A stretch of 64,000 nt of DNA. It comes from Treponemataceae bacterium. GTDB lineage: Bacteria > Spirochaetota > Spirochaetia > Treponematales > Rectinemataceae. The translations under genes were made by a program, and so were the position numbers. Shown one piece after another: positions 7,117-31,245 of this stretch (the stretch's first letter is position 1; the number at the start of each line of letters is the position of its first letter). The notes beneath the pieces are model-generated. The model saw only the letters and a list, made by a program, of their open reading frames with translations, searched no databases and was not told the DNA's origin. The stretch lies in assembly GCA_963667725.2 (NCBI GenBank), contig CAXXHO010000007.1:32001-96000 (forward strand). Direction: 5' to 3'.

Positions 7117-7241
7117 TTCTAACAAAAGCTTCAACCTTGTAAATCCTTTGGCATGGTTTGTGCAAGAACAACAATGCACAAACCACGCCAAGCCTGAGCT
7201 AGCGCTCAGGCGCGGATTTAAAGGTTAAGCAAATGTTAGAT
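7117..7241 (+). repeat. attC 2 (family A)
   Basis: TTCTAAC...GTTAGAT. Confidence 0.95.
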
Positions 7242-7269
7242 TGACGCTTCGCGCAGAGGAGAAGAACAT

Positions 7270-7965
7270 ATGTTGAGTGACATTTCTAGCTTAAAATTGA
7301 ACCCGATTAGCAAATATGAGTTCGAGCGCCTACTTAAAGTTAATATGCCAGAATTATTGGATAGGTTTTCACAATCAAAAGATCTAATAATTAAAATGGC
7401 AGATATCGTGCTTGAGACTGTTGCGCATGCAGAATTTCAGGTTAAAAAAGAGGAACATGTTAATGAATGGTCAAGTATAATCAAAATATGGAATGTAATT
7501 GGATTCGTATTATTAGCATCGCTTGATCTGAAAATATATTTAGAGTTAATGTGTATGTCAAAAGATAATATGCAAAAGATAGCTATAACTAGAATGGTTT
7601 ATACTCAACTATATGAAATTGCCAAAAATTTAGACGATTTAACTAATATCAGGTTTGTTGAAGAAATGAAAAAAATAAATGCTAATCAATATATAGCTGA
7701 ACTATATGAAAAAAGAAAAATGCTTTCTGATTTAAAAAGGAGATATGAAAAAGACTTATTTAGTGTAAGAGTCAACATAGGAGCACATAGAGAAAAAAAC
7801 TATCAAGTTTTTCATCAGTATTTATGTAGTATGGACTATACTGCTTCAATTCAACTAGTATTTATGTTTAATGAAGTAATCGATGCATTAGGAGAGACTC
7901 TTCAAAAAATAATGAATCAATCAGTGGGATTTATTAAAGATACATATAATGGAAAAGAAATCTAA
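7270..7965 (+). CDS. Hypothetical helical protein (cassette 3)
   Basis: GAGGAG RBS; stop codon inside the inverse core; fills the cassette. Confidence 0.85.
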   Translation: MLSDISSLKLNPISKYEFERLLKVNMPELLDRFSQSKDLIIKMADIVLETVAHAEFQVKKEEHVNEWSSIIKIWNVIGFVLLASLDLKIYLELMCMSKDNMQKIAITRMVYTQLYEIAKNLDDLTNIRFVEEMKKINANQYIAELYEKRKMLSDLKRRYEKDLFSVRVNIGAHREKNYQVFHQYLCSMDYTASIQLVFMFNEVIDALGETLQKIMNQSVGFIKDTYNGKEI

Positions 7966-8083
7966 CAAATGCTTCAACCTTGTAAATCCTTTGTCATGGT
8001 TTGTGCAAGAACTCCCTTGCACAAACCATGACAAGCCTTCGCTTTGCTCAGGCGCGGATTTAAAGGTTAAGCTAATGTTAGGC
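7960..8083 (+). repeat. attC 3 (family A)
   Basis: ATCTAAC...GTTAGGC. Confidence 0.95.
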
Positions 8084-8141
8084 AGACGCCTTCGGCGCCC
8101 GGGGCAAAGTTGAAATCGTATAAGTACCAAGGTCAAAAAAA

Positions 8142-8942
8142 ATGTGCCTTGTATTTATAGAGTGCATAAGTAGCGAGAATAGAATGAAACCAGTAAACGT
8201 AGTCAGAAAAGGAGAAGACAATAATAGCGTTTTTATTGCTTCAAATATAGGAGAATTGCTTTTGGATACTGGTGCAACATCATCACAAATTACTGAAAAA
8301 AGTGTACCATTGAATACAAAAATAGTTGGGGATATAAAATCTCACGGTTTCTTTGGCAAAAGCAGAACTATGAGAAATTCTACTGTTCCGATTTTATCTA
8401 TAGGCGATATAGTAAAGCAAAATGTACCAATGCAAATTGATATGTCGCTTAATGCCCATGGGATATTGGGAATGGATATTTTATCAGAGTATAAAGTATT
8501 CCTTGATATAAAAAATGGTATTGTATGCTTTGATTCAGAAAAAATATGCTCACAAGAAATGTATAAAGGTAATCGTAAAATGTATTGCCTTCCCATAGTA
8601 CTAAATGGCATTTCGTTATGGGGGCTATTAGATACAGGTGCAAGCGGAACAATAGTGAGCAAAACACTATTCAAAAAGTATCCTGAGTTTTTTGAATATG
8701 CAGGAAAAGATACAGCAAAAGATTGGACAGGAGCAGGTTTTTCGTGTGATTTAGTGACAATAAAGAATCTTATTGTAGGAGATTATAAGATTCCTGATCA
8801 TAAGGGAGCTATTCTAAATCTTTGGCCTTACAGATTCCTCATTGGGAAAGCTATTGAGTTTATAATTGGTGTAACAACATTAGAGAAGGGTAATTGGATT
8901 TTTGATTTTCCTAACTCGAAATGGGAATATATTGCGTATTGA
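8142..8942 (+). CDS. Retropepsin-like aspartyl protease with two tandem domains (cassette 4)
   Basis: LLDTGATSS...GILGMDIL and LLDTGASGT...FIIG; start could be the later ATG (MKPV). Confidence 0.85.
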   Translation: MCLVFIECISSENRMKPVNVVRKGEDNNSVFIASNIGELLLDTGATSSQITEKSVPLNTKIVGDIKSHGFFGKSRTMRNSTVPILSIGDIVKQNVPMQIDMSLNAHGILGMDILSEYKVFLDIKNGIVCFDSEKICSQEMYKGNRKMYCLPIVLNGISLWGLLDTGASGTIVSKTLFKKYPEFFEYAGKDTAKDWTGAGFSCDLVTIKNLIVGDYKIPDHKGAILNLWPYRFLIGKAIEFIIGVTTLEKGNWIFDFPNSKWEYIAY

Positions 8943-8963
8943 ATAAGGGCATAGGATAATTTT

Positions 8964-9087
8964 GCCTAACACCTGCTTCAACCTTATAAATCCTTTGGCA
9001 TGGTTCTAGCGAAAAGATCGCGCAAGAACCATGCCAAGCCTTCGCAGTAGCTCAGGCGCGGATTTACAGGTTAAGCTAATGTTCTAC
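8964..9087 (+). repeat. attC 4
   Basis: GCCTAAC...GTTCTAC (non-canonical core). Confidence 0.93.
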
Positions 9088-9140
9088 GGACCCTCCGGGC
9101 GGGAAGAATATATATACCTAATCATAGATGATTAGAGTAA

Positions 9141-9626
9141 ATGAGGGATTTTATGGGAAGTATTTTTACAGTTGACAATTTCAAACTCGCAAGTTCTATT
9201 GTTTCTCCCTTTTTAGCTGCATATCTAGCATCGCATTGGGCATTAAAAAAACACTACAAAGAAAAATGGTGGGAAAGAAAAGAAATTGCATATAAAGACA
9301 TTATTGACTCATTATATGATCTTCTACAGTATTGTGAAATTGAAAAAGAAGACTATGAGCATAGATCAACAATACAGATAGATAAATTTAATGAACTTCA
9401 GGGGAAATACAATAATGCATATTGGAATATTAAGAAAAATACCATTATAGCTGAATATCTAGTTTCAAAAGATGCAGCAGCTGCTTTAAAAATATTGCAA
9501 AATCGCGAAAAGTTGAAATGGGACGAAAATCCTCCATGGGAAATATTCGAAGCAGAATATAATGCTTATCAGAAAGCACTTATGGAAATAATCCGTACTT
9601 CAAATATTGATTTGAAAAAGAAATAA
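9141..9626 (+). CDS. Hypothetical protein with N-terminal TM segment (cassette 5)
   Basis: 161 aa; TM followed by KEKWWERKEIAY. Confidence 0.8.
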   Translation: MRDFMGSIFTVDNFKLASSIVSPFLAAYLASHWALKKHYKEKWWERKEIAYKDIIDSLYDLLQYCEIEKEDYEHRSTIQIDKFNELQGKYNNAYWNIKKNTIIAEYLVSKDAAAALKILQNREKLKWDENPPWEIFEAEYNAYQKALMEIIRTSNIDLKKK

Positions 9627-9729
9627 GTCAAATATATCAATATTGTGATTAGATTTAAGAACTTACAATAGCAAGAAGATATATATTGTGTGGTAAGGTT
9701 TAGAGTTAAATATTTTTTAAGGGGGAGAA

Positions 9730-9933
9730 ATGAATATCAAGGAAGGTTTTAGGAGATTATCGATTTTGATTGGTATTATTAGTACATTAGTTTTCTTTTT
9801 AGCTTTTGCTTCAAATAATGGAGAACAAATAGGTTTAGTAATTCTTGTTTCACTAGTGGTAGGGTTAGTTGCATCTGGAATCACTTTACTGATTGGTTAT
9901 GTCCTAGAAGGCTTTAAAAATAAAAATGCGTAG
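9730..9933 (+). CDS. Small two-TM membrane protein (cassette 5, second gene)
   Basis: GGGGAG RBS, two hydrophobic helices, stop inside the inverse core. Confidence 0.75.
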   Translation: MNIKEGFRRLSILIGIISTLVFFLAFASNNGEQIGLVILVSLVVGLVASGITLLIGYVLEGFKNKNA

Positions 9934-10053
9934 AACACATGCTTCAACCTTATAAATCCTTTGGCATGGTTTGTGCAGGAACAAAAATGCACAAACCACG
10001 CCAAGCCTTCACTTTGTTCAGGCACGGATTTAAAGGTTAAGCAAATGTTAGAT
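9930..10053 (+). repeat. attC 5 (family A)
   Basis: GTAGAAC (complement of GTTCTAC at 9081)...GTTAGAT. Confidence 0.95.
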
Positions 10054-10110
10054 GGACGCCTTCGGCGCATATAAAATAAAAAAGTAAAAGCTGCCATTTT
10101 AAGGGTTACT

Positions 10111-10638
10111 ATGAAAATATTTACAAATAGATTGGAATTAAGAGAGTATTGTGAAAATGATCTAGAGCTGTTGCATAACTTTAGGATTGATAAAAATATT
10201 TCAAAGTATATTCATTGGAATGACCTAAGCCTTGAAGGTACGAGAAGTATTCTAAAAGAGGGGCTTGATGATCAAAAAGAAGAAAATAGAAAGTATTATC
10301 ATTTTGTAGTTTGCTTAATGCCGGATAATATCCCAATTGGAGAGATAGGTGTCAATATAAAAATTAGCAATATATATGGCGGCATTGGTATATTAGGCTA
10401 TTTTATGTTTAAAGAATATTGGCATAATGGGTATATGTCTGAAGCAGCGCATGGAATTATAGAATATATGTTTATTGAGCTTAAGTTACATAAAATAGAG
10501 GCATATGTTGATTATAAGAATAAAAGATCAATAAAGGTGTTAAAAAGATTAGGAATGAAGAAAGAAGCACAATTTAAAAAAGAAGTATTCGTTAACAATA
10601 GATGGGAAGATGTTGTTTATTATGCATTAGTAAAGTGA
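10111..10638 (+). CDS. GNAT acetyltransferase, RimJ/RimL type (cassette 6)
   Basis: TNRLELR, LGY..YWHNGYMSEA, NKRSIKVLKRLGM. Confidence 0.9.
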   Translation: MKIFTNRLELREYCENDLELLHNFRIDKNISKYIHWNDLSLEGTRSILKEGLDDQKEENRKYYHFVVCLMPDNIPIGEIGVNIKISNIYGGIGILGYFMFKEYWHNGYMSEAAHGIIEYMFIELKLHKIEAYVDYKNKRSIKVLKRLGMKKEAQFKKEVFVNNRWEDVVYYALVK

Positions 10639-10667
10639 AATTGAGAAAATGAGATTGGGAAGCATTC

Positions 10668-10790
10668 ATCTAACAACTGCTTCAACCTTATAAATCCTTT
10701 GTCATGGTTTGTGCAAGAAAAAAGAGCACAAACCACGCCAAGCCTTCGCTTTGCTCAGGCGCGGATTTAAAGGTTAAGCTAATGTTAGAA
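10668..10790 (+). repeat. attC 6 (family A)
   Basis: ATCTAAC...GTTAGAA. Confidence 0.95.
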
Positions 10791-11201
10791 CGACCTCATT
10801 CTATTGACTAGAGCCTTGCATGATCTTGTTGCAGAATACTAAGCAGAATTGCATGATTATCATAAGAAAGATCATTTTTACATTACTGGACGGAAAAAAG
10901 TCTTGAGATGCCGCTCCAAGAAGCGCGCATTGGGCTTCTTGGAAAGTGGCGGCTAAGAGCTTCGCTGTAGGCAGTTCATCGGTCCCACCGCAGAAGATTT
11001 CTCTCTGGGAATGAAACCAGTGATTCGCAGAGAGCTGCCCACAGCGAAGCGAAGAGGCCGCAAAGGGAAAAAGTAAAATAGCGCGCGAAGAGGAGCGGCA
11101 GAAGAGCGACTTTTTTCGCATTCAGAGTTGGCGAAGAGGCTCGCCAAGATTACGTAATGTGATTATATCTTTGTGGCGGTTGGTAGCGCTAAAGTTGGCG
11201 A
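10791..11201 (+). ncRNA. ORF-less structured cassette, copy 3
   Basis: Third diverged copy, 1 nt shorter, same helices. Confidence 0.55.
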
Positions 11202-11325
11202 TTCTAACAAAAGCTTCAACCTTATAAATCCTTTGTCATGGTTTGTGCAGAAATCCCATGCACAAACCACGCCAAGCCTTCGCAGTAGCTCAGGCGCGGA
11301 TTTAAAGGTTAAGCTAATGTTAGAT
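11202..11325 (+). repeat. attC 7 (family A)
   Basis: TTCTAAC...GTTAGAT. Confidence 0.95.
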
Positions 11326-11382
11326 TGACGCTCCCGCGCAGGAAGAAAACAATATAGGCTGCTATTTGAGTAAACGGGTTCT

Positions 11383-11943
11383 ATGATGGACAAATCGTAT
11401 AAAGCAATTACCGACTTCATATTTCTTGAAGATCAACCTCAGAAAGCAGATATAATACTTATTCCTGGTGGCAGCAAACCACAACTAATGGAAAGAGCGT
11501 GTTCATTATTTTTTGATGGGTATTCATCATTGTTACTTCCATCTGGGGGAAAGAATAAAGCATTAGTAAACTATGAAACAGAATGGGACTATTTTTTTGA
11601 AATAGCAAAGAAAATGAGTATTCCAGAAGAGGTTGTACTTAAAGAAGATAAAGCGACTAATACATATGAGAATGCACTTTATTCGAAAAGAATAATTGAA
11701 GATAAGGGAATACTAATAAAGAAAGCATTGTTAGTATGTAAAGCATTTCATGCTAGAAGAGCCTTATTAACATATCAGACATGGTTTATGAATGATATAG
11801 AATACATTATTTGTCCAATTGTGGATGATAGAGGAATAAGTAGAGATAATTGGTATCTAGATCAAAATAAAATTGTAAAAGTAATGAGTGAAGTAGAAAA
11901 GGTAGGGAAGTATTTTAAAGATAATTTGAGTTGGATCATTTAA
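11383..11943 (+). CDS. YdcF/DUF218 family protein (cassette 8)
   Basis: ADIILIPGG, SGG, EDKATNTYENALYS, FHARRA. Confidence 0.88.
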   Translation: MMDKSYKAITDFIFLEDQPQKADIILIPGGSKPQLMERACSLFFDGYSSLLLPSGGKNKALVNYETEWDYFFEIAKKMSIPEEVVLKEDKATNTYENALYSKRIIEDKGILIKKALLVCKAFHARRALLTYQTWFMNDIEYIICPIVDDRGISRDNWYLDQNKIVKVMSEVEKVGKYFKDNLSWII

Positions 11944-11956
11944 GAACTGAAAAGAA

Positions 11957-12096
11957 ATCTAACACATGCTTCAACCTGATAAAAACTTTGTCACGGTTTG
12001 TGCGATCGCGCGCCACTTCGTGGCTTCGCTCTTCACGCACAAACCGCGCCAAGCGCGAGTACGCGCCTGTTTTTACAGGTTAAGCCAATGTTAGCC
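11957..12096 (+). repeat. attC 8 (distinct 140-bp variant)
   Basis: ATCTAAC...GTTAGCC. Confidence 0.93.
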
Positions 12097-12117
12097 ATAT
12101 TAAGTTAAAATCAAGGC

Positions 12118-12960: not shown

Positions 12961-12971
12961 TAAAAAGAAAT

Positions 12972-13097
12972 GGCTAACAAATGCTTCAACCTGATAATTG
13001 CTTTTGTCACAGTTCTTGCAGTCGCTTCGCTCGGCAAGAACTGCGCCAATCCTTCGCTTCGCTCAGGCCGCAATTACAGGTTAAGCCAATGTTATGC
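12972..13097 (+). repeat. attC 9 (family B)
   Basis: GGCTAAC...GTTATGC. Confidence 0.95.
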
Positions 13098-13162
13098 GGA
13101 CTCGCGCATTCGCGCGAGCTAAGTTGTTATATTAGCGAAATATATAATTAGCTATATTGCCC

Positions 13163-13191: not shown

Positions 13192-13211
13192 ATAAGGGTA
13201 TGGAGGACATC

Positions 13212-13409
13212 ATGGCTACAAACCTCGCTATAGATGATAGATTACTCACAAAAGCGCTTGAAATTGGCGGTTATAAATCAAAAAAGGACACTGTTAATGC
13301 TGCACTCGATGAATTTATCAAAAGAAGAAAAGCGAAAGAGCTTATAGATATTTTTGGTACAATTGAATATGAGGCTTCTTATGATTATAAAAAAATGAGA
13401 TCACGATGA
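13212..13409 (+). CDS. vapB: VapB-type antitoxin (cassette 10)
   Basis: MATNLAIDDRLL..SKKDTVNAAL; GGAGG RBS; overlaps the PIN toxin. Confidence 0.88.
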   Translation: MATNLAIDDRLLTKALEIGGYKSKKDTVNAALDEFIKRRKAKELIDIFGTIEYEASYDYKKMRSR

Positions 13410-13819
13410 AACGAGTATTAGTAGATACTTCAGTATGGTCTCTTGCATTAAGAAAAAAGGAAAGAACGGAGGAAGAACAAAAGATTGTAAGCCATCTATC
13501 TAAACTAATAAGTAATCTTACTATTGTTCTTATAGGTCCAATACGGCAAGAGATTCTATCGGGAATTCCAACGAAAGAACGATTTGAAGCACTTAAAGAA
13601 AAAATATCAATATTCGAAGATCATAAAATACATACAAATGATTATGAGCTTGCCGCAGAATACTTCAATGAATGTAGAAAACATGGGATACAAGGATCTC
13701 ATATAGATTACTTAATATGTTCCGTTGCTACAAATAATGATATGTCAATATTTACATTGGATAATGATTTTCAACTCTATAAAAAACATATAAGAATTAA
13801 GTTAGAAAAATTCGCATAA
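13406..13819 (+). CDS. vapC: VapC PIN-domain toxin
   Basis: VLVDTSVW, QEILSG, IDYLI, TLDNDF. Confidence 0.92.
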   Translation: MKRVLVDTSVWSLALRKKERTEEEQKIVSHLSKLISNLTIVLIGPIRQEILSGIPTKERFEALKEKISIFEDHKIHTNDYELAAEYFNECRKHGIQGSHIDYLICSVATNNDMSIFTLDNDFQLYKKHIRIKLEKFA

Positions 13820-13938: not shown

Positions 13939-14063
13939 GGACGCCTGCGGCGCAGCGTAAATAATGTATAGAGTATCATTAGGTTTCTACGATCTATTAA
14001 GCATTATAGAGTACTATTTGGTGTGTACAATCAAATAATACTAATCCTAAAATATTTACTTAT

Positions 14064-14653: not shown

Positions 14654-14730
14654 GGACGCGCTTAACGCGCGCGCATAGGAATTTGATGTAGCCTGAGTCT
14701 TAAGAGTAGATGTTTTGAGTATATTACGGC

Positions 14731-15451: not shown

Positions 15452-15506
15452 GGACGCCTTCGGCGCTTGGGCATTTTTAATTTGAAATAATAGTAGAGTT
15501 GAGATC

Positions 15507-16203: not shown

Positions 16204-16241
16204 GGACGCGCTTAACGCGCGCAAGAATAAAGGGACTGTTA

Positions 16242-17152: not shown

Positions 17153-17209
17153 GGACGCCTTCGGCGCATATAAAATAAAAAAGTAAAAGCTGCCATTTTA
17201 AGGGTTACT

Positions 17210-17766: not shown

Positions 17767-17890
17767 ATCTAACACCTGCTTCAACCTTATAAATCCTTTG
17801 TCATGGTTTGTGCAAGATAGAAAAGCACAAACCATGCCAAGCCTGAGCTAACGCTCAGGCGCGGATTTACAGGTTAAGCTAATGTTAGGC
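17767..17890 (+). repeat. attC 15 (family A)
   Basis: ATCTAAC...GTTAGGC. Confidence 0.95.
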
Positions 17891-17899
17891 AGGTAAAAC

Positions 17900-18702
17900 A
17901 TGAGTTTATATAAATATCGAGCGGTTGGGGACTTGGCTTCTGGAGACATTGATCCGCATTAGCTACCTTACTTTCAAAAGGTGAAATATATTTTTCTAGT
18001 CCTAAAGAATTTAATGATCCGTTTGATTGTTTATTTTCTTTTTACAAAAATGTAACTAATATTGAAATAATTAAACACTTAAGGAGTATTTTAGTACCAG
18101 AGTCTGAAATACAATATTTATTAACTAATCATGGTCTAGCAAAACTAAAAGATAAAGTAATTGAGAAGAATGAAAATGCTGATCTTTTACGAATATTTAG
18201 TCTGGCTAAAAATTGCTTAAATACTTTACTTTGGTCTCATTACTCACAAAATCATTATGGTATATGTATAGGCTTTAAGACTTATAACTATAATAATACA
18301 GAGCATTTATATATAACACGTAATCAAATAGATGTTAATTTACCTGAATATCCAAATAACCTAGTACCCGCAGTTAAGGTAAATTACACTAGTGAAAGAC
18401 CTGAAGCATTTAGTATTATTTTAAAAGAATCCGATGATCTTAAGAAAGTATTTTTAACAAAAGATATATGTTGGGAATATGAAGAAGAAAGAAGAATTAT
18501 TGTTCCAAGTAAATATATTAAGAGAAATCCTATTCATATAAATCGATCTCAAATTGAAGAAATTATCTTTGGATTGAGAACACCAAAAATATTTGAGGAC
18601 AAAATCATAAGTATAGTAAGCGATATTAAGGATATAAAGATATATAAAGTTAAAATAAAGAATGGATCATTTAAATTAATTAAGCAAAAATATACTGCCT
18701 AA
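17900..18702 (+). pseudogene. DUF2971-family gene with a frameshift near 17959 (cassette 16; absent from the ORF track)
   Basis: MSLYKYR.. stops at TAG 17960; the -1 frame continues FSSPKEFNDPFDC..LWSHYSQNHYGICIGF..TKDICWEYEEERRII..EIIFG to TAA 18700-18702. Confidence 0.85.
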
Positions 18703-18820
18703 CACATGCTTCAACCTTATAAATCCTTTGTCATGGTTTGTGCAAGAAAAGAAGAGCACAAACCACGCCAATCCTTCGCTTCGCTCAGGCGCGGATTTAA
18801 AGGTTAAGCTAATGTTAGAA
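18697..18820 (+). repeat. attC 16 (family A)
   Basis: GCCTAAC...GTTAGAA. Confidence 0.95.
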
Positions 18821-18978
18821 AGGCTAGGAATAATATCAATATTTAAGTACCTAAAGTAAAGCAGCAATACGCTTTGGCATAATTGCGAAAGCAGAATTAG
18901 AATTGTTTCGCATTACGTTTTGACGGTATCATACTATTGGGTAGTAATACGGTAGAATAATCGTGGTGGAGGATAAAT

Positions 18979-19350: not shown

Positions 19351-19359
19351 AAGTGAGCT

Positions 19360-19470
19360 TTCTAACACTCGCTTCAACCTGACTCGGCTATTGTCACAGT
19401 TTGTGCTATCGGGCTGCGCCCGGCACAAACTGCGCCAATGTATGCCTCGCAGGTTAAGCTAATGTTATGT
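19360..19470 (+). repeat. attC 17 (family C)
   Basis: TTCTAAC...GTTATGT. Confidence 0.95.
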
Positions 19471-19534
19471 TGACGCTTCGCGCAGAGGAAATAATAACTG
19501 AATATCAAATTCTACTACTAAAGGAATACTGCTT

Positions 19535-20243: not shown

Positions 20244-20289
20244 GGACGCCTCCGGCGCCGGACCTTAAGAATCTATATTGGAGCGTGTT

Positions 20290-20835: not shown

Positions 20836-20949
20836 TTCTAACACTCGCTTCAACCTGACTCGGCTACTGTCACGGTTTGTGCAGCTCACTACGTTCGCAA
20901 GCCACAAACCGCGCCAGTTGACGCCTCGCAGGTTAAGCAAATGTTAGCC
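20836..20949 (+). repeat. attC 19 (family C, internally 1 nt different from attC 18)
   Basis: TTCTAAC...GTTAGCC. Confidence 0.95.
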
Positions 20950-20970
20950 ATATTAAGTTAAAATCAAGGC

Positions 20971-21813: not shown

Positions 21814-21824
21814 TAAAAAGAAAT

Positions 21825-21950
21825 GGCTAACAAATGCTTCAACCTGATAATTGCTTTTGTCACAGTTCTTGCAGTCGCTTCGCTCGGCAAGAACTGCGCC
21901 AATCCTTCGCTTCGCTCAGGCCGCAATTACAGGTTAAGCCAATGTTAGAC
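21825..21950 (+). repeat. attC 20 (family B)
   Basis: GGCTAAC...GTTAGAC. Confidence 0.95.
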
Positions 21951-22026
21951 AGACGCGCTTCGCGCGCGCAAAATAAAGTCATATAGTTTAATAAGTTAAG
22001 TTGAAATAGTAAGTTTTTTAACTTTC

Positions 22027-22063
22027 TTGACAATTTGCTTCAATATGAATACAATTGAAGCAA
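22027..22063 (+). promoter_or_regulatory. TA cassette promoter with operator palindrome
   Basis: TTGACA-17-TACAAT overlapping TTGCTTCAAT-N9-ATTGAAGCAA. Confidence 0.8.
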
Positions 22064-22074
22064 GAGGTGTTTGT

Positions 22075-22308
22075 ATGGCAAAAACTATTACTGTACGGCT
22101 AGAGGAAGCTACTTACGATATATTCAAAAAAGCTGCTGAAGGCCAAAAGAGGACTATATCTAACTATCTCGAGTATGCCGCTCTTAACTTCACTGTTAAT
22201 GAATCCATAGTTGATGATGAAGAAATGAAAGAGATACTTTCCTTTGAGAAAGATCTTAAGAAAGGCCTTAAAGACATTTCCGCAGGAAGGTATAAAGTAA
22301 TTGCCTAA
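22075..22308 (+). CDS. Ribbon-helix-helix (CopG-like) antitoxin (cassette 21)
   Basis: MAKTITVRL..IFKKAAEGQKRTISNYLE; GAGGTG RBS. Confidence 0.82.
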   Translation: MAKTITVRLEEATYDIFKKAAEGQKRTISNYLEYAALNFTVNESIVDDEEMKEILSFEKDLKKGLKDISAGRYKVIA

Positions 22309-22570
22309 ATATAAAATTGCTGAGACTGAGACTTTTGAGAAAAAGATCAATACTCAGAAGTACAAGTTCTTATATAAGAAAATTAGGGAATACATTTATC
22401 CTATATTGAGAGAGAATCCGTACTTTGGGCCAAATATTAAGAAGCTTAAGAGTGAATATAAAGAATTGTATCGGTATAGAATTGGAGACTATAGGCTATT
22501 TTATAAAGTATCTGAAGAAACAGTAATAATATTTATAATTGATATAGAGAATAGAAAAGACGCTTATTAG
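22301..22570 (+). CDS. relE: RelE/ParE family toxin
   Basis: IKKLK..LYRYRIGDYRLFY..I..RKDAY. Confidence 0.88.
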   Translation: MPKYKIAETETFEKKINTQKYKFLYKKIREYIYPILRENPYFGPNIKKLKSEYKELYRYRIGDYRLFYKVSEETVIIFIIDIENRKDAY

Positions 22571-22580
22571 TGAAAAAATT

Positions 22581-22712
22581 GTCTAACAAATGCTTCAACC
22601 TGATAATTGCTTTTGTCACACTTTTTGCAGTCGTCGCTTCGCTCCTTGGCAAAAAGTGCGCCAATCCTTCGCTTCGCTCAAGCCGCAATTACAGGTTAAG
22701 CTAATGTTAGCT
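22581..22712 (+). repeat. attC 21 (family B)
   Basis: GTCTAAC...GTTAGCT. Confidence 0.95.
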
Positions 22713-22743
22713 GGACGCCTCCGGCGCCCCGGAATCGAAGAAT

Positions 22744-22772
22744 TTGACAATCCTTATCGATAGTGTTATAGT
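22744..22772 (+). promoter_or_regulatory. TA cassette promoter
   Basis: TTGACA-17-TATAGT with extended -10 TG. Confidence 0.8.
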
Positions 22773-22790
22773 AAGACATGGGGGCTATCG

Positions 22791-22997
22791 ATGAAAACTA
22801 TCACTATATCAAGCAAATATCAAGTTGTTATACCTAAAGAAATAAGAGAAACTATAGGGCTGCATGTAGGTGCAAAACTTGAGATCATTACCTATGGATC
22901 AAGAATTGAACTTGTCCCTATTCAATCTATGAAGAAACTCAAAGGGGCTTTCAAGGGAATCGATACTAATGTTCAAAGAGAAGAAGACAGAATATGA
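22791..22997 (+). CDS. AbrB/MazE-type antitoxin (cassette 22)
   Basis: ISSKYQVVIPKEIRE..G.KL. Confidence 0.9.
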   Translation: MKTITISSKYQVVIPKEIRETIGLHVGAKLEIITYGSRIELVPIQSMKKLKGAFKGIDTNVQREEDRI

Positions 22998-23368
22998 ACA
23001 TTGTAGATTCATCATGTTGGCTAGAGTATTTTGCAGGAAGCCGTGTAGGAGATGAAGTATCATCAGTTATAGAAGATACGGATCATCTCCTGGTTCCTTC
23101 AATCATTGTCTATGAAGTGTTCAAAAAGCTCATACTTGAATTGGATGAAGATAAGGCAATATATGCAGTAGCCCATATGAAACAAGGGCATATAGTGAAT
23201 CTTGATACTGACTTAGCAATCTACGCAGCAAAAATTGGCAAAGACAATAAGCTTGCTATGGCAGATAGTATAATCTACGCGATAACAAAAAAGTATAATG
23301 CTTTATTATGGACACAAGACAAACACTTCAAGGATTTGAAGTCAATCAAGTATTTTGAAAAGAAATAG
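22994..23368 (+). CDS. vapC: VapC PIN-domain toxin
   Basis: IVDSSCWLEY, YEV, MADSIIYA, WTQDKHF. Confidence 0.92.
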   Translation: MNIVDSSCWLEYFAGSRVGDEVSSVIEDTDHLLVPSIIVYEVFKKLILELDEDKAIYAVAHMKQGHIVNLDTDLAIYAAKIGKDNKLAMADSIIYAITKKYNALLWTQDKHFKDLKSIKYFEKK

Positions 23369-23479
23369 CTAACACCTGCTTCAACCCTATAACGCTATTG
23401 TCACGGTTTGTGCAATTCGCTTCGCTCGCAAGCACAAACCGCGCCAGCTTACGCCTCGCAGGTTAAGCTAATGTTAGGT
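23367..23479 (+). repeat. attC 22 (chimeric arms)
   Basis: AGCTAAC...GTTAGGT. Confidence 0.93.
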
Positions 23480-23520
23480 GGACGCGCTAACGCGCGCGCA
23501 AAATCGCGATCCTGTAAAGC

Positions 23521-23568
23521 TTTACAAATGCTTCAGTGGTGTGTATACTATTACTAGATAGTACACAT
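23521..23568 (+). promoter_or_regulatory. vapBC promoter with operator-like inverted repeat
   Basis: TTTACA-17-TATACT overlapping TGTGTA...TACACA. Confidence 0.72.
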
Positions 23569-23582
23569 TGTGGAGGTTCTGT

Positions 23583-23774
23583 ATGAGAACTAATGTTGTA
23601 ATTGATGATAAATTAATGAATAAGGCAAAGAAGGTCTCTGGCTTGAAAACCAAAAAGGAAACTATTGAAGAGGCTCTTAAGCTTTTGGTAGCTCAAAAGG
23701 AGCAATCAGAGATCAGAAAGCTTCGTGGAAAGCTCAAATGGGAAGGTAACCTTGAAGAGATGAGGCTAGACTGA
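23583..23774 (+). CDS. vapB: VapB-type antitoxin (cassette 23)
   Basis: MRTNVVIDDKLM..TKKETIEEAL..WEGNLEEMR; GGAGG RBS. Confidence 0.9.
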   Translation: MRTNVVIDDKLMNKAKKVSGLKTKKETIEEALKLLVAQKEQSEIRKLRGKLKWEGNLEEMRLD

Positions 23775-24166
23775 TGATAATAGCAGATACTTCAGTCTGG
23801 ATTGATTACGTTCGAGGCATTAAGTCAGAACAGACAGATTTACTCGATTATGAGTTGCTCAATGATAGGGTAGCGACAGGAGATATTATAATTGTTGAGT
23901 TTCTTCAAGGATTTCGAGAAGATAAAGATCTAAAAATAGCAAAAGGGATAATGGATCGACTTGAATACTATGACTTTCTTGGGAGAGAGATGGCTTTTAT
24001 AGTGTCAGAAAACTATAGAAAGTTAAGGAGACATGGAGTAACTGTAAGAAAGACCATAGATGTAATAATCGCAAGCTTTTGTATCGAGAAGGGATTTGAG
24101 CTATTACATAATGATCGAGACTTTGATCCAATGGAAAAGTACTTAGGTTTAAAAGTAAAAAGATAA
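23774..24166 (+). CDS. vapC: VapC PIN-domain toxin
   Basis: IADTSVWIDY, EFLQG, TIDVIIA, HNDRDF. Confidence 0.92.
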   Translation: MIIADTSVWIDYVRGIKSEQTDLLDYELLNDRVATGDIIIVEFLQGFREDKDLKIAKGIMDRLEYYDFLGREMAFIVSENYRKLRRHGVTVRKTIDVIIASFCIEKGFELLHNDRDFDPMEKYLGLKVKR

Positions 24167-24292: not shown

Positions 24293-24416
24293 TCACGCTG
24301 CGCGAGCGGAAAAAGATACATGTTAATCTTTTTATTGCCAATGTTAAGTTGATCCTTCAAAAAATAATATCAAGACTAAAAGTTTTTAGAGTCTTTATTT
24401 TAAATAAGGGACAATT

Positions 24417-25034: not shown

Positions 25035-25067
25035 GGACGCGCTTAACGCGCGCCCTAGGAGCTTGAA

Positions 25068-25616: not shown

Positions 25617-25624
25617 ATAGGGTC

Positions 25625-25758: not shown

Positions 25759-25796
25759 GGACCCTGCTATCGCAGGGCAATCTATAGAGAGTTCAT

Positions 25797-25961: not shown

Positions 25962-25974
25962 AAAGATAATAGAC

Positions 25975-26502
25975 ATGAATAGAAAACCATTATTCTTTAT
26001 CTTCTCTGGATTGCCTGGAGTAGGGAAGACAACGCTTTCTAAAGCTCTTGCTATTCAGTATCATGCAGCTTTCTTTAGAATTGATACCATAGAACATGGT
26101 ATCAAAGAGTTGTGTAACTTTTCTGTACAAAGTGAAGGCTATAGATTAACTGAAAAGATAGTTAAGGATAATCTTCTTATTGGGAGTAATGTTGTTATTG
26201 ATTGCTGTAATCCTTATGAGTTCATACGAAAAGAGTGGAGCGATCTAGGGTTAGAATGTAATGCAGAAAATATAAGAATTGAAATAGTATGTACTGATAA
26301 GAAAGAACATAAAGAGCGAGTAGGGAAACGAGAGAGTGATATACAAGGGTTTGAAGTACCATCATGGGAAGAAGTAGAAGCTAGGGAGTACGAGGCATGG
26401 GAGATTGATGTAATAAGGGTTGAGACATCAGGGAGAAGTGAAGAAGAGAGCATTAAAGAGCTTATAAATATGGTTAAAATGAAGGTAAAAGATTTCGCCT
26501 AA
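25975..26502 (+). CDS. P-loop kinase / AAA_33 family protein (cassette 26)
   Basis: SGLPGVGKTT, VVIDCCNP. Confidence 0.9.
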   Translation: MNRKPLFFIFSGLPGVGKTTLSKALAIQYHAAFFRIDTIEHGIKELCNFSVQSEGYRLTEKIVKDNLLIGSNVVIDCCNPYEFIRKEWSDLGLECNAENIRIEIVCTDKKEHKERVGKRESDIQGFEVPSWEEVEAREYEAWEIDVIRVETSGRSEEESIKELINMVKMKVKDFA

Positions 26503-26603
26503 CAAAAGCTTCAACCTTAAAAATCCTTTGGCATGGTTTGTGCAAGAACTCCCATGCACAAACCGCGCCAATGTACGCGTTAATGGTTAAGCTAATGTTA
26601 GAT
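26497..26603 (+). repeat. attC 26 (chimeric: family A left, family D right)
   Basis: GCCTAAC...GTTAGAT. Confidence 0.92.
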
Positions 26604-26619
26604 TTATTTAGGAGAACAT

Positions 26620-27285
26620 GTGAAGCAAGATGATATATTAGCTCGTGTGAAAGAATTTACGGAAGTGTCTTTTCTCGATCATAGATATTCTTCATTTGAT
26701 TATTGTTACAATTATTTTAGAGAAAATGAAAATAATAAAATTCTTGAAGATATGGAAAAATCATGTGCGATTTTAGGATTCTATTTAGCTAGTTGGGGTA
26801 TGTACCGTGGTTCTAGTTTCCTATTGCAGAAGAGCTATAGATATTTTATTGATTTAGTAAATTATATAGCTAGTGTTGATAGAGCAATATGGAAAATTAA
26901 GCCTGATAAATTCATAGATAAAGAAAGTCAAGAATTGATATTGGAAATATATAAAAAGGTTAAAGAGAATATAATTAAAGATGAAAATCAAGAAAGGGTA
27001 CTTATAACAAAAATAATGCTTGGAGTGTTTGGAGTAATTCCTGCATTTGATACCTATTTTTGTAAAGCTTTTAAAGAGATAGAGCCTAAAACTTCTCGAT
27101 TTACTAAAGTAAATGAAGATTCTCTTAGTGTAATCGGAAGATTCTATATTGAAAATGAATATGATATAGTTAGTTTATCTAAAGAGATAAAAACAAATGA
27201 CTTTATTACCGGAAAAGAAAGATATCAATATACAAATGCAAAAATTATAGATATGTATGGATTTGTAAAAGGAACAAAAATCTAA
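26620..27285 (+). CDS. Conserved hypothetical protein (cassette 27)
   Basis: AGGAG RBS; FYLASWGMYRGSSFLLQK and ITKIMLGVFGVIPAFDTYF blocks; stop in the inverse core. Confidence 0.85.
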   Translation: MKQDDILARVKEFTEVSFLDHRYSSFDYCYNYFRENENNKILEDMEKSCAILGFYLASWGMYRGSSFLLQKSYRYFIDLVNYIASVDRAIWKIKPDKFIDKESQELILEIYKKVKENIIKDENQERVLITKIMLGVFGVIPAFDTYFCKAFKEIEPKTSRFTKVNEDSLSVIGRFYIENEYDIVSLSKEIKTNDFITGKERYQYTNAKIIDMYGFVKGTKI

Positions 27286-27389
27286 CAACTGCTTCAACCT
27301 GATAATATGGCCTATCACGGTTCTTGCAGCGCTCCGCGCTTGGCAAGAACTACGCCAGTCTCATTTTAAAGGTTAAGCGTATGTTAGCC
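27280..27389 (+). repeat. attC 27
   Basis: ATCTAAC...GTTAGCC. Confidence 0.93.
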
Positions 27390-27417
27390 GGACGCAGCTT
27401 CGCTGCGCGGGATCAAA

Positions 27418-27726
27418 TTATAGAATCTGAAGATAGTTGCGCTTACCGTAAATGAATCGATGGATCTGGACTTCGTTTTCAACAATCACATAGAAAAGGA
27501 GAAAGTTATCTATCGGGATCATGTGGTACCCTAGTTGATTCAAGTATGGATCCTTTACTAATGGGTAAATCAAAAGATTGTTTTCTAATCGATCAATGGC
27601 TTCAGAGAACTTGTTGAATAAAGAAGCTGGAGAGGTTTTTAGTATTTGTTCAAAGTATTCTTTAATGTCATAGAGATCATGTTCAGCTGTCGGATAGATG
27701 AGAACAGAATACCTCTGCTTACTCAT
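27418..27726 (-). CDS. ParE/RelE family toxin (cassette 28, inverted)
   Basis: AEHDLYDIKEY..NFLLFYVI..VQIHRFIYGKRNY. Confidence 0.88.
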   Translation of the reverse strand: MSKQRYSVLIYPTAEHDLYDIKEYFEQILKTSPASLFNKFSEAIDRLENNLLIYPLVKDPYLNQLGYHMIPIDNFLLFYVIVENEVQIHRFIYGKRNYLQIL

Positions 27727-27980
27727 GATACTAAGAGCCCATTTATGACATCATGAGCATTTTTCCCTTTAGCATCTTTCTTGATCTCCTCGCGGGCTTC
27801 ATTAAGCTTTTGGTAGAGCTCAAGTTTTGCGAGCTGTTGATCATAGTACTCGAGAGACATTACAACGAGATCACCAATACCGTTTTTAGTGAGAAATACT
27901 GGTTCACTATCCGAATGTGCAATCTCGGAGATAGATGTGAAGTTGTTTCGAAGATCGGAAATCGGACGAATAATGGGCAT
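27723..27980 (-). CDS. Phd/YefM family antitoxin
   Basis: MPIIRPISDLRNNF..EPVFLTKNG..LVVMS; AGGAGG RBS. Confidence 0.92.
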   Translation of the reverse strand: MPIIRPISDLRNNFTSISEIAHSDSEPVFLTKNGIGDLVVMSLEYYDQQLAKLELYQKLNEAREEIKKDAKGKNAHDVINGLLVS

Positions 27981-27998
27981 GGGATCCTCCTAAAAGAT

Positions 27999-28027
27999 AG
28001 TATAATGATACTATAATGATAAGTCAA
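27999..28027 (-). promoter_or_regulatory. Promoter of the inverted Phd-ParE cassette
   Basis: Minus strand TTGACT-17-TATACT with tandem TATCATTATA repeats. Confidence 0.8.
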
Positions 28028-28094
28028 GAAGATAAAGCCAGTAGATAGTATTGATATATAGTTACTTCTAAAAGAATTAGCTGTTAAAAGATAC

Positions 28095-28227
28095 GGCTAA
28101 CACATGCTTCAGCCTGATAATTGCTTTTATCACACTTTTTGCAGTCGTCGCTTCGCTCCTTAGCAAAAAGTGCGCCAATCCTTCGCTTCGCTCAGGCATG
28201 GATTTAAAGCTTAAGCTAATGTTAGGT
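28095..28227 (+). repeat. attC 28 (chimeric, L boxes mutated)
   Basis: GGCTAAC..GCTTCAGC/CTTAAGC..GTTAGGT. Confidence 0.88.
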
Positions 28228-28256
28228 GGACGCGCTTAACGCGCGCTACAAGGAAA

Positions 28257-28916
28257 GTGAGTATGATCAAGAATAAGGCAATTATACTAGCAACTAGAAT
28301 ATCCTCATTCATTGTTGTCTTATTGGGCATCATCTCCATAGGTGGCGGGTTCAAAGGAAAATGGAACTGGTCATTATTCATGTACTATACCGTGCAAAGC
28401 AATACTCTCGTGCTGCTGATGTTTGGCTATTTGATTGTTAGGACGATTATAAGCATTAAGAACAAATCTGATCTCATAACCAAAACCAAAGACTTCGAAA
28501 TGGTCTGCATGGTAGACATATTTTTGACCTTCTTTGTGTATTGGACAATGTTGGCGCCGAAAATGACCTCACTGTGGGAGTTTTCAAACATTACCGTTCA
28601 TGGCGTAACGCCATTACTATGCATTATTGACTACATTCTTTATTATCAAAATAGTAGGTTAAAGTATCGAACTGTTTATTATGCCCTTATCTATCCGTTG
28701 CTCTATATAGTTTCCAATTCAATCGTGGGTTTACTTGGATATATCTATTACTATGATAGAACAGGTAGGCCTGTACATTTCCCTTACTTTTTTATGGATT
28801 ATGACAGGTTGGGGATCAAAACCATACCTTATATAGCTGGGTTAGTCGTGTTCATGGTTTGCATGAGTCATATAGTCTATGGTATTGATAAACGTATACT
28901 GAAGAAAAAGAGATAA
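28257..28916 (+). CDS. Pr6Pr-family membrane protein (cassette 29)
   Basis: YYTVQSN, TFFVYWTMLAP, HGVTPLL..D, YPLLY, FPYFFMD. Confidence 0.82.
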   Translation: MSMIKNKAIILATRISSFIVVLLGIISIGGGFKGKWNWSLFMYYTVQSNTLVLLMFGYLIVRTIISIKNKSDLITKTKDFEMVCMVDIFLTFFVYWTMLAPKMTSLWEFSNITVHGVTPLLCIIDYILYYQNSRLKYRTVYYALIYPLLYIVSNSIVGLLGYIYYYDRTGRPVHFPYFFMDYDRLGIKTIPYIAGLVVFMVCMSHIVYGIDKRILKKKR

Positions 28917-28931
28917 TGAAGTAATAGTAGC

Positions 28932-29058
28932 ATCTAGCACCTGCTTCAACCCGATAATTGCTTTTGGCGCAATTCTTGCAGTCGCTGCGCTCGGCAAGAA
29001 CTGCGCCAAGCCTTTGCTTCGCTCAGGCGCGGATTTAAAGGTTAAGCCAATGTTAGGT
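28932..29058 (+). repeat. attC 29 (inverse core mutated AAC to AGC)
   Basis: ATCTAGC...GTTAGGT. Confidence 0.88.
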
Positions 29059-29124
29059 GGACGCGCTAAGGCGCGCCAAGCAAGATACTGAATAGTTGAG
29101 CTATTGATGCATAGGAGTATAATC

Positions 29125-29766
29125 ATGTCGGATTACTCAAAAAGTGCATTGGAGATCTTGCGCAATCCTCAGAAGACAATGCAATGGTACATTATCCCGA
29201 TCTTTGTAATTGTCTTATACATATATTATAAAGAGTTACATGATAAGCACTACAATGTAGTATTAGGGGCATTTGCTTTATGGGGAATGGACCTCTTTAA
29301 CGAGATATGGAATAGCATTGTTTTTCATGCAACGGGGTTTGCTCCAGTGTGGGGCACTCCTGGCGGAGTAGGGAATACTTCATTATTGCTCTTGATTGGC
29401 TACAATATAGAAATATCGCTTATGTTCGCTGTTATGGGGATCGCCGTATGCTTAAGCTTGCCTAAAGACAAGACAAAGAAGATATTGGGGATCAATAATA
29501 GAATATTTTTAGGAATAGGGTTTACTACCGTAGCGGTGCTTGTCGAATGCTTTTTAAATTATGCTGGTTTATTGACGTGGGAATATCCTTGGTGGAGCAG
29601 GCAGGCGCCATGGCTTGTATGGCTTATAGGGTATGCTCCATTCTTTACGATGGCATTTATTGTCCATGATATGAAGAAACGCAAGAATCAAATACTTACT
29701 TTAGGTATAATACTGGGCATTGATATCATTGCATTAATTGTATTTGGAAGTATTGGTTGGATGTAA
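29125..29766 (+). CDS. Multi-pass membrane protein (cassette 30), paralogue of 53929..54558
   Basis: AGGAG RBS; ALEILR..MQWYIIP, EIWN, VWGTP, EISLMFAVMG, KILGINNR. Confidence 0.85.
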   Translation: MSDYSKSALEILRNPQKTMQWYIIPIFVIVLYIYYKELHDKHYNVVLGAFALWGMDLFNEIWNSIVFHATGFAPVWGTPGGVGNTSLLLLIGYNIEISLMFAVMGIAVCLSLPKDKTKKILGINNRIFLGIGFTTVAVLVECFLNYAGLLTWEYPWWSRQAPWLVWLIGYAPFFTMAFIVHDMKKRKNQILTLGIILGIDIIALIVFGSIGWM

Positions 29767-29778
29767 TAGAGAAGAAGC

Positions 29779-29908
29779 TTCTATCAATCGCTTCAATCCA
29801 ACTCGGCTACTGTCACGGTTTGTGCAAGGCCGCTTGGCTCCCAGCACAAACCACGCCAAGTTTTCGCTTCGCGCAGGCTCGGATTTAAAGGTTAAGCTAA
29901 TGATAGAC
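29779..29908 (+). repeat. attC 30 (both cores changed: ATC/GAT)
   Basis: TTCTATC...GATAGAC; family C left arm, family A right arm. Confidence 0.85.
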
Positions 29909-29940
29909 AAACGCGCTTCGCGCAGAGGAAAGATCTTCAC

Positions 29941-30384
29941 ATGAGAGTATGGTCATTGCACCCCAAATACCTAGATGCAAAAGGCATCGTCGCGGCGTGG
30001 AGAGAAGGGCTATTGGCAAAAAAGGTGCTAGAGGGAAGAACAAACGGATACAGAAACCATCCTCAGCTATGCCGATTCAAAGAGTGTAAAGACCCTGTTG
30101 AAGCAATAACTGCATATCTGCAGCATGTGTATAGTGAATCCCTTGTACGGGGCTATCGATTCAATGGAGACAAAATAGGTCCACATAGAGAATGTACGGA
30201 AATGATGATAGAAGTGACAGACGGGCAAATTGCATATGAGTATCGCTTGTTGCTGCATAAACTGAAGGCAAGAGATCCAACTAAATATAATCGGATAAAG
30301 AACATAAAGGACATTGAAGTAAACGGGATATTCAAGGTGATTGAAGGTGGGATTTGTGAATGGGAGAAAATGAAAGAACTATAG
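29941..30384 (+). CDS. Pyrimidine dimer DNA glycosylase / endonuclease V-like protein
   Basis: MRVWSLHPKYLDAKGIVAAWREGLLAKKVL.G.T.GY.NHPQL. Confidence 0.85.
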   Translation: MRVWSLHPKYLDAKGIVAAWREGLLAKKVLEGRTNGYRNHPQLCRFKECKDPVEAITAYLQHVYSESLVRGYRFNGDKIGPHRECTEMMIEVTDGQIAYEYRLLLHKLKARDPTKYNRIKNIKDIEVNGIFKVIEGGICEWEKMKEL

Positions 30385-30449
30385 GTTCACTATCCGAATG
30401 GGCAATCTCGGAGATAGTTGTGAAGTTGTTTCGAAGATCAGAAATCGGA
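30384..30449 (-). pseudogene. Fragment of a second Phd antitoxin gene
   Basis: Nearly identical to 27901-27966 (encodes PISDLRNNFTTISEIAHSDSEP). Confidence 0.85.
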
Positions 30450-30463
30450 TAAAAAAGAAGAAC

Positions 30464-30536
30464 GGCCAACTCCTGCTTCAGCTTGATAATTGCTTTTGTC
30501 ACAGTTCTTGCAGTCGCTGAGCTCGAGAAGAATTGC
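30464..30536 (+). repeat. Truncated attC (left half of family B only)
   Basis: GGCCAAC-TCCT-GCTTCAGCTTGATAATTGCTTTTGTCACAGTTCTTGCAG; no L'/R'. Confidence 0.8.
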
Positions 30537-30554
30537 CTACCTAAAGGATAAGCG

Positions 30555-31070
30555 ATGAATGTATCATTCCAGCTACTTAAGAAACCTACAAACGAAATAA
30601 TTGAAAAAATGGTTATATGGAATAATGATCCAAGCCTAAGGCCTCTTATTAGACCGAATAAATGTGAAGCAGATCTAGAAAAAATAATGACCACTTCTGA
30701 AATTGAATCGGGAATGAAGCACAGTATTACGCATATAATAAAAATTGACAAAGAAGTGGTTGGAGAAATAGGATATCAGATAGAACCACCTCAGTTGTTT
30801 AAGAAAGAAAAAGGAACCGTATGGATATCTATCATAATAGGAGAACAAGCAGCCCATGGCAAAGGTATTGGAACTGAAGCGATGGAGTATATAGAAAAAG
30901 TAATAAAAAAAGAAGGCTTTAGTAGGATTGAACTAGGAGTATTTGAGTTTAACAAGGTAGCACTAGGACTCTATCAAAAGATGGGATATAAGGAGATAGG
31001 AAGAGTGAAAGAATTCACCTATTGGAATGGAAAGATGTGGCAAGATATAAGAATGGAAAAGAACATTTGA
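30555..31070 (+). CDS. GNAT acetyltransferase
   Basis: IIIGEQAAHGKGIG, LGVFEFNKVA..LYQKMGY. Confidence 0.9.
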   Translation: MNVSFQLLKKPTNEIIEKMVIWNNDPSLRPLIRPNKCEADLEKIMTTSEIESGMKHSITHIIKIDKEVVGEIGYQIEPPQLFKKEKGTVWISIIIGEQAAHGKGIGTEAMEYIEKVIKKEGFSRIELGVFEFNKVALGLYQKMGYKEIGRVKEFTYWNGKMWQDIRMEKNI

Positions 31071-31085
31071 ACGAGGAATGAATAT

Positions 31086-31199
31086 TTCTAACACTCGTTT
31101 CAACCTGACTCGGCCACTGTCAAGGTTTGTGCTGCTCACTTCGTTCGCAAGCCACGAATCGCGCCTATTGACGCCTCGCAGGTTAGACGTATGTTAGAA
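31086..31199 (+). repeat. Last full-length attC (family C, eroding)
   Basis: TTCTAAC...GTTAGAA. Confidence 0.88.
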
Positions 31200-31245
31200 C
31201 GGCGCCTCCGGCGCCGGATCTTAAGAATCTATATTGGAGTGCAAT

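Follow-up and report, generated by a model that had tools for sequence, protein, structure and literature searches.

Comparison with described integron sites

The closest described relatives of the element reported here are attC sites of the T-N6-G type, namely attCaadA7 (G16 and T23) and the Vibrio cholerae repeat (VCR; G16, T20 and T24), which have an R''-L''-L'-R' layout, 5-nt spacers and a recombining bottom strand and in which, in the published accounts available, extrahelical bases (EHBs) are confined to the R''-L'' arm, close to L'' (PMC5027507; PMC3053210). A stretch of 64,000 nucleotides from a Treponemataceae genome (assembly GCA_963667725.2, contig CAXXHO010000007.1, positions 32,001 to 96,000; hereafter the window) was found to contain an integron whose attC sites share this layout, the spacers, extrahelical G16 and T23 and the bottom-strand polarity. 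Most of its cassettes, however, begin with a mini-hairpin just beyond R', which would add a further unpaired T to the R arm, on the strand of the scissile AAC, in a structure built partly by this separate hairpin. Judged from sequence, the mini-hairpin is genuine, covaries and extends a site of known kind.

Self-pairing of R' and R'' over 9–11 consecutive nucleotides, that is past the 7-nt core, has been reported (PMC2727003, in the part available) and was reproduced here, to about 11 bp, in 58 cassettes of proteobacterial-class arrays and 14 class 1 cassettes. In the present arrays, by contrast, such pairing is interrupted by a bulge at position 10 (numbering throughout from the crossover G of GTT as position 1), or stops at position 8, after which a hairpin takes over whose formation is independent of the adjacent cassette. 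In reverse integrons of the Treponema type intI is directed towards the array, and they have the same attC family (PMC3607928; PMC8352920), but the Spirochaetes attC model covers R'' to R' only, and the available text of these two papers mentions neither a flanking hairpin nor an R-arm bulge. The cassette aacA1:gcuG, which was assigned to that model in PMC8352920, carries the hairpin. As a DNA structure the hairpin resembles the d(GCGNAGC)/d(GCGNNAGC) mini-hairpins, which have G..A loops of 3–5 nt closed by C-G and are known at sites of single-stranded DNA (ssDNA) proteins such as the G4 origin and the N4 promoters; the review describing them contains no mention of integrons in its available part (PMC13037366), and here the hairpin is joined to a bulge set at the register of a recombinase.

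No hairpin or bulge beyond R' was found to be described in the integron and attC literature reached by full-text search, which included the available parts of PMC2727003, PMC5027507, PMC3053210, PMC7439510, PMC2095811, PMC8352920, PMC5737381, PMC7691350, PMC4909258, PMC3607928, PMC5737091, 10.1101/2024.04.09.588808 and 10.1101/2022.02.06.479319, with attC alignments in supplements, Coleman 2004, Stokes 1997 and MacDonald 2006 outside its scope. Models of attC take R' as their limit, with every extrahelical base next to the L box. A conserved, covarying structure past R', formed in two ways, would extend the definition of the integrase substrate, and the first 25 bases of a cassette would shape the site shared with its neighbour.

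Occurrence of the hairpin at cassette starts

The integrase gene of the window (intI, 4700–5992, plus strand) points at its own array, sharing the cassettes' direction, an orientation described for Treponema (PMC3607928, available part). It is followed by an attI region at 6141–6172 (plus strand; crossover G at 6161), placed by inference from the first cassette start and from likeness to the attI regions of contigs C1 and C5, and by R''-L''-L'-R' sites of 107–140 nt which recur between cassettes up to about 32.3 kb, so that integrase, adjacent attI and recurring attC sites of an integron are all present. Since the best full-length relatives of the integrase carry spirochaete labels and the orientation is Treponema-like, the attC family is called spirochaete-type.

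From 6161 to 32265 the window has 33 cassette starts that can be recognised, and at 24 of them a GC stem begins at position 11 (24 of 32 without the degenerate start at 32265); of 398 other GTT trinucleotides between 6001 and 33000, only 1 has such a stem at the same offset. The preliminary description had proposed such a position-fixed hairpin, and the seven examples that it quoted were all recovered at the coordinates given, 10 nt past the crossover G. Across the whole genome the hairpin was present at 140 of 213 attC calls, a set which omits degenerate sites and a subtype with a 7-nt spacer, and in 106 of 156 cassette families, against a mean of 3.1 and a maximum of 9 families in 300 shuffles. 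The outermost stem begins at the position-11 offset in 102 families and at any other single offset in no more than 9. Within the genome, presence of the hairpin did not track the attC subtype of the cassette itself.

The window modules were assigned to the minus strand, on which their loops are read. Stem CGCC carries loop GAA at 8085–8098, 10055–10068, 15453–15466 and 17154–17167, loop GCA at 13940–13953, and loop GGA at 20245–20258, 22714–22727 and 31201–31214, the last with G at position 10. Stem CGC occurs with loop GAA at 7243–7254 (G-A-CGC-TTC-GCG-C) and 19472–19483 and with loop GGGA at 11327–11339. Stem CGCGC is combined with loop GTTAA at 14655–14672, 16205–16222, 25036–25053 and 28229–28246, with GTTA at 23481–23497, with GAA at 21952–21967 and with a degenerate loop (CTTA) at 29060–29076. 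Single stems are CCC (loop GGA, 9089–9100), CTCGCGC (GAAT, 13099–13119), CCCTGC (GATA, 25760–25778) and CGCAGC (GAA, 27391–27408). The module at 24294–24309, for which two parses are possible, has C at position 9 where its paralogues close with G, a compensatory pair, and the module at 29910–29923 is decaying and adjoins a mutated R' (GAT).

Structure of the hairpin module

The 5' end of each cassette was compared with its own R'' side, as the two would meet in the excised circle, and this comparison splits the cassettes into two classes. In the class with the hairpin (171 starts in the discovery set, with 26 distinct stems), base 9 can pair with the base following the stem in 164 of 171 starts (G:C in 158, C:G in 6, other combinations in 7). 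Held-out data, consisting of G519, G050, G507 and metagenome cassettes that did not match the search pattern, were fetched or set aside for validation; there, pair 9 was formed in 100 of 103 starts, and all 13 cases without G were compensated (11 C:G, one T:A and one A:T) in several different stems. The C:G variants exclude an alternative closure by G.T. Pairing between position 8 and the second base after the stem was at chance level (0.25 against 0.22 expected), which places the end of the hairpin at pair 9. Base 10 is A in 167 of 171 hairpin starts, which gives an unpaired T on the bottom, recombining strand. The dinucleotide GA, which the preliminary description placed before the stem, is no linker outside the hairpin, since G9 closes the hairpin and A10 is the bulge. 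The variable stem sequence with conserved pairing that had been claimed is borne out. The pairing pattern itself is, on these counts, near certain. Only under the canonical definition of the site does the hairpin lie outside attC; the preferred reading makes it the distal portion of the R arm.

Matching of hairpin cassettes to their own R'' side runs through position 8 in 155 of 171 starts and includes position 9 in none (2 of 103 in the held-out set). Complementarity of R' to the cassette's own R'' was 0.95–1.00 at positions 4–8 in 133 families, which were pre-filtered for at least 6/7 core matches, leaving only position 8 independent. The sharp edge of this matching (0.96 at position 8, 0.00 at position 9) would be expected equally of a scar of cassette genesis, in which the new 3' end is copied from the 5' end within the folded circle and copying stops at the hairpin after 8 bases or, where no hairpin is present, runs on and skips a base 10 held by protein, with little later role for the structure. 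Such a scar is also suggested by the 5–8 variable bases matched between the ends of unrelated genes (133 cassettes; 78 protein families with the hairpin and 35 without) and by the tracking of the feature with attC family and not with integrase type. Against it, a maintained structure is indicated by the compensation at pair 9, seen in several stems, and by the register match with the L arm (see below), a base skipped at a fixed place still requires a protein to hold it, and other integrons have matched ends of 9–11 nt without any hairpin (the 58-cassette control; PMC2727003, available part). A scar of this kind is considered an unlikely account of the module.

Read on the bottom strand, 144 of 171 loops are of the G..A type, compared with none on the top strand, and the closing base is C in 167 of 171; in the held-out set 95 of 103 loops conform. 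The claimed bottom-strand bias towards GNA-type loops is therefore upheld. The same loop type caps GC-loop-GC motifs within the attC sites, on the bottom strand in 169 cases and on the top strand in 5. A side hairpin seen in many attC sites (e.g., 13046–13067 and 18768–18789) forms on the bottom strand a GAA triloop over tandem G.A pairs, and such tandem pairs are stable. [quoted passage not shown]

It was suggested in the preliminary description that the hairpin acts in cis, as ssDNA, beside R'. A bottom-strand element is indeed indicated by the strand bias of the loops, the fixed register, the covariation and the decay together with attC (see below). The narrower form of the proposal, in which a GNA mini-hairpin of any register excludes SSB and nucleases or nucleates folding beside R', draws on the properties just cited, on the opening of attC hairpins by SSB (PMC5737091, available part) and on the recurrence of the loop type within these attC sites. 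By itself it leaves unexplained the register fixed to one base, the conserved bulge, pair 9 and the hairpin-less class with the same bulge. As the sole function such a guard is improbable, although it may be a second role of the hairpin.

Cassettes without the hairpin

Cassette starts that lack the hairpin retain A10 in 65 of 72 cases, and in 42 of 72 the two ends of the cassette pair as 9 bp, a bulge and 2 bp (permutation mean 5.2, maximum 16 in 20000). This arrangement is realised with ten different dinucleotides, while moving the bulge to position 8, 9, 11 or 12, or omitting it, yields perfect matches in 0, 4, 1, 0 and 0 of 72 starts, respectively. Absence of the hairpin was confirmed at all window starts for which it had been claimed, given here on the plus strand. 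Five of these obey the rule: the methyltransferase start at 12090–12101 (bulged A10, pairing with its own 3' end at 12968–12978 in the circular form only), its second copy at 20943–20954 (A10; 21821–21831), and the starts at 17884–17895 (G10; 18693–18703), 18814–18825 (G10; 19356–19366) and 26597–26608 (A10; 27276–27286). The ORF-less cassettes start at 6161–6172 (A10 kept, own ends able to pair only if the opposite arm has an additional bulge), 6698–6709 (G at position 10) and 10784–10795 (A10 kept).

Within the array, the R'' of the neighbouring cassette matches positions 8–12 at only 0.40–0.15, so that only hairpin cassettes retain a distal duplex there. In the proteobacterial-class control the bulge was found in none of the 58 cassettes and base 10 is variable; contiguous end-pairing fades at positions 11–12 (0.48 and 0.29), a duplex length equal to 9 + 2.

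Decay in the absence of an integrase

Contigs C1, C5 and C7 of genome G000 contain three complete integrons, whose integrases are of the HARP type and which have about 236 attC sites in all, and decaying clusters lie on contig C3, in which no integrase match was found. Starts derived from hairpin cassettes are intact in 146 of 155 cases in the three integrase-linked arrays, compared with 6 of 18 in the C3 clusters. The L'/GTT boxes have decayed as well (11 of 26 in the C3 clusters against 10 of 236), while the ORFs after decayed C3 hairpins still comprise 93–476 codons.

This persistence of ORFs after loss of hairpins speaks against a 5' leader RNA element that controls translation or protects the transcript. 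A leader element would fit the location of the hairpin upstream of start codons and an RNA model in which the top strand folds with a mean of -5.2 kcal/mol, but the hairpin is fixed to the crossover and not to the start codon, the two being 35–223 nt apart in 19 window cassettes, and on the transcribed strand its loops have pyrimidine closure, with 0 of 171 of the G..A type. A neutral palindrome kept through template switching would not yield the bulge common to hairpin-less cassettes. Both possibilities are regarded as extremely unlikely.

Register of the two arms and proposed role

In the L arm of these attC sites a 9-bp duplex (G16 uncounted) is followed by a single bulged base. Among 198 distinct sites this base lies at register 10 in 178 and is A on the top strand in 192. 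In an example attC (8964–9087, minus strand) the extrahelical bases of the bottom strand are G 8979 and T 8986, the latter being the L-arm bulge that is mirrored by the hairpin module. The two half-sites of a tyrosine recombinase site are related by two-fold symmetry, in which the T23 strand is equivalent to the T10 strand. The L-arm bulge corresponds to T23 of the T-N6-G type (PMC5027507; PMC3053210, available parts). In form, the R-arm bulge agrees with an extrahelical base: it is a single unpaired base after 9 bp, on the potential scissile strand of its arm, and mostly T. In location it does not, as its place is within the R arm and beyond R', while the canonical EHBs are on the R''-L'' arm near L'' (PMC2727003, available part). 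T10 would work like an EHB without being the canonical one.

The sequences show the pairing pattern in both of its realisations, the mirrored register, the bias towards one strand and the decay with attC. On this basis the hairpin is probably an R-arm extension that would present a mirror extrahelical T to the integrase. In the folded bottom strand R' would pair with R'' for 8 bp; the mini-hairpin would then add pair 9, between base 9 and the base after the stem, leave base 10 as an unpaired T and let the helix resume at position 11, with the GNA-type loop as a cap. Hairpin-less cassettes would reach equal geometry in the excised circle only, where their two ends can pair with each other over 9 bp and, past the bulge, a further 2 bp. 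The L arm has 9 bp, extrahelical T23 and further duplex on the symmetry-equivalent strand, and with this matching geometry both integrase half-sites would present a T at the same register. T10 may be flipped out of the helix and taken by the R-bound monomer into the same cis pocket, a capture which would register the monomer and favour the bottom strand.

In VchIntIA the L-arm T is held in cis by a pocket of P232, H240 and H241 (PMC3053210, available part), and the T so bound disorganises the active site of that monomer, by which the L monomer is silenced (PMC2727003, available part). Residues P342, H350 and H351 of the window integrase align to these pocket residues and are predicted to bind T likewise. 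The predicted structure of this integrase is of low confidence (mean predicted local distance difference test score, pLDDT, 61; predicted template modelling score, pTM, 0.32), its listed fold matches are recombinases only, and it does not inform on DNA contacts. Because a cis-bound T disorganises the VchIntIA active site, the hairpin class could, by analogy, act as a brake on excision. It can be suggested, as a tentative extension, that two engineered cassette classes exist, one showing the mirror T always (hairpin; array and circle) and one only after excision (paired ends), forming a cassette-encoded switch between excision and integration, with the sharp 8 versus 9+2 end-matching as the footprint of the cassette-building machinery. 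The structure beyond R' would itself offer a handle on two questions, namely the mobility of single cassettes in large arrays and the origin of matched cassette ends.

Several observations weigh against the proposed presentation of a mirror T. Instead of the bulge, the nearest-neighbour DNA model favours a G.T closure that leaves base 9 unpaired, and the bulged form would consequently need protein or stacking for its stability; DNA folding also gives no bottom-strand advantage (mean -4.03 versus -4.03 kcal/mol, the top strand being lower in 117 of 171). The lack of matches at position 9 is partly compositional, as G is rare on that side. The 9 + bulge + 2 rule is broken by 30 of the 72 hairpin-less starts and obeyed by only 9 of 19 in the held-out set, where several misses are imperfect hairpins and two hits are near-duplicates. 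The position of the bulge and the rule were chosen after inspection of the data, and P values are overstated since the cassettes are kin. Decay without an integrase would also be expected of a neutral scar, and cassettes of other integrons work without the hairpin. Finally, the silencing of the L monomer by its T (PMC2727003, available part) is awkward for a T offered to the attacking monomer.

Distribution among relatives and other phyla

Alignment of cassette starts from related integrons, which had been recommended as a check, showed the hairpin to be conserved in spirochaete arrays, with covariation at pair 9 and bottom-strand bias of the loops. Among attC calls that include a few spurious ones, it was found in 21/38 in G002, 10/11 in G019, 24/38 in G047, 19/32 in G038, 9/14 in G042, 14/18 in G057 and 5/6 in G049; three of these relatives have 66-nt attC sites and more varied stems. 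When one exact hairpin pattern was sought in 301 genomes of the phylum, 15 of them had it. A metagenome scan gave at least 130 stretches, and among the matches listed 85 of 132 follow a called attC. The three class 1 resistance cassettes whose attC is spirochaete-type (aphA16, aac(6')-F72 and aacA1:gcuG) all have the hairpin, whereas none of the 11 other class 1 cassettes has either hairpin or spirochaete-type attC, which would make the 5' end a mark of provenance.

Outside the spirochaetes the samples are small (67 cassettes and 6 from Nitrospirota). The hairpin was found in none of 58 cassettes from 14 proteobacterial-class arrays (class of G061) and in none of 9 cassettes from 3 arrays of the planctomycete phylum (phylum of G753), these 9 being all that 20 planctomycete and cyanobacterial stretches yielded. 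In Nitrospirota a stem was called at 1 of 6 validated starts, in a doubtful GC-rich site. At locus L063 (10900–16400), a non-spirochaete array downstream of intI, A is present at position 10 in 5 clear starts, and the bulge rule may, from these starts, reach beyond the spirochaetes.

The N-terminus of the window integrase contains a HARP-like domain (HARP match with an E value of 1.5e-4, below the cut-off), and since IntI N-termini already known escaped the HARP model of Pfam, a custom N-terminal profile was used instead. The preliminary description had linked the hairpin to this part of the integrase, and an accessory site for the HARP-like domain of spirochaete integrases, which would bind the hairpin or the adjacent junction, might be argued from the existence of the domain and from most hairpin-bearing arrays examined adjoining such an integrase (among the 80 integrase loci found, most contigs stop before the array). 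Hairpin and domain were not found to co-occur consistently, in cases that are few: in the complete genome G047, 24 of 38 attC calls have the hairpin while the integrase is divergent, with another N-terminus, and no N-terminal profile match exists genome-wide; in G507 both cassettes have the hairpin without a profile match; and three starts beside HARP-type Nitrospirota integrases are without it. The link is unsupported, and an accessory site of this type is very improbable. The divergent integrase of G047 that serves a spirochaete-type array (L097; G047:C1:1926823–1928100) has an extra N-terminus which, as read from its sequence, resembles a second SAM-type domain.

Other features of the arrays

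Gene-less cassettes were observed in which the same mini-hairpin, a palindrome of 29 nt without mismatch, makes up all that lies between R' and R''; next comes an attC-like stem whose spacer is paired. They lie at L101:8600–8630 (G038) and at L027:1857, 2763 and 5139 (a Nitrospira locus with three copies, one right after intI). Derivation of the hairpins from such cassettes was considered and rejected, as the R'' side of hairpin cassettes never has their position-9 base. A terminator was likewise rejected on inspection, since no U-run follows the stem on either strand. An Rfam scan of 4400–34000 returned nothing at gathering level, the single match reaching 28 bits where the gathering score is 50. 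The motif TTGACG, a candidate -35 box, occurs in some cassette starts.

The attC subtype with an L'-R' spacer of 7 nt instead of 5 was found in about 25 copies at G000:C5:449000–490000, with normal hairpins. The ORF-less cassette of about 535 bp is present in three copies (6158–7234 and 10784–11318), the first at attI, and C5 contains 12 copies of a second ORF-less family. Immediately to the left of the attI crossover, at 6141–6159, lies a 6-base inverted repeat with a 7-base spacer, which is not kept on C1 or C5. Distal to the array, a further 24 kb or so of short cassette-like genes (32813–57000), in which attC sites can no longer be recognised, forms a fossil distal array; no attC or module was recognisable between 33 and 58 kb, so that this region gives no decay comparison. 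Contig GC skew was not strong enough for orienting the arrays relative to replication. Toxin-antitoxin cassettes of the PIN, ParE and Phd families (13406–13819, 22027–24166 and 27418–27980) all have the hairpin at their start.

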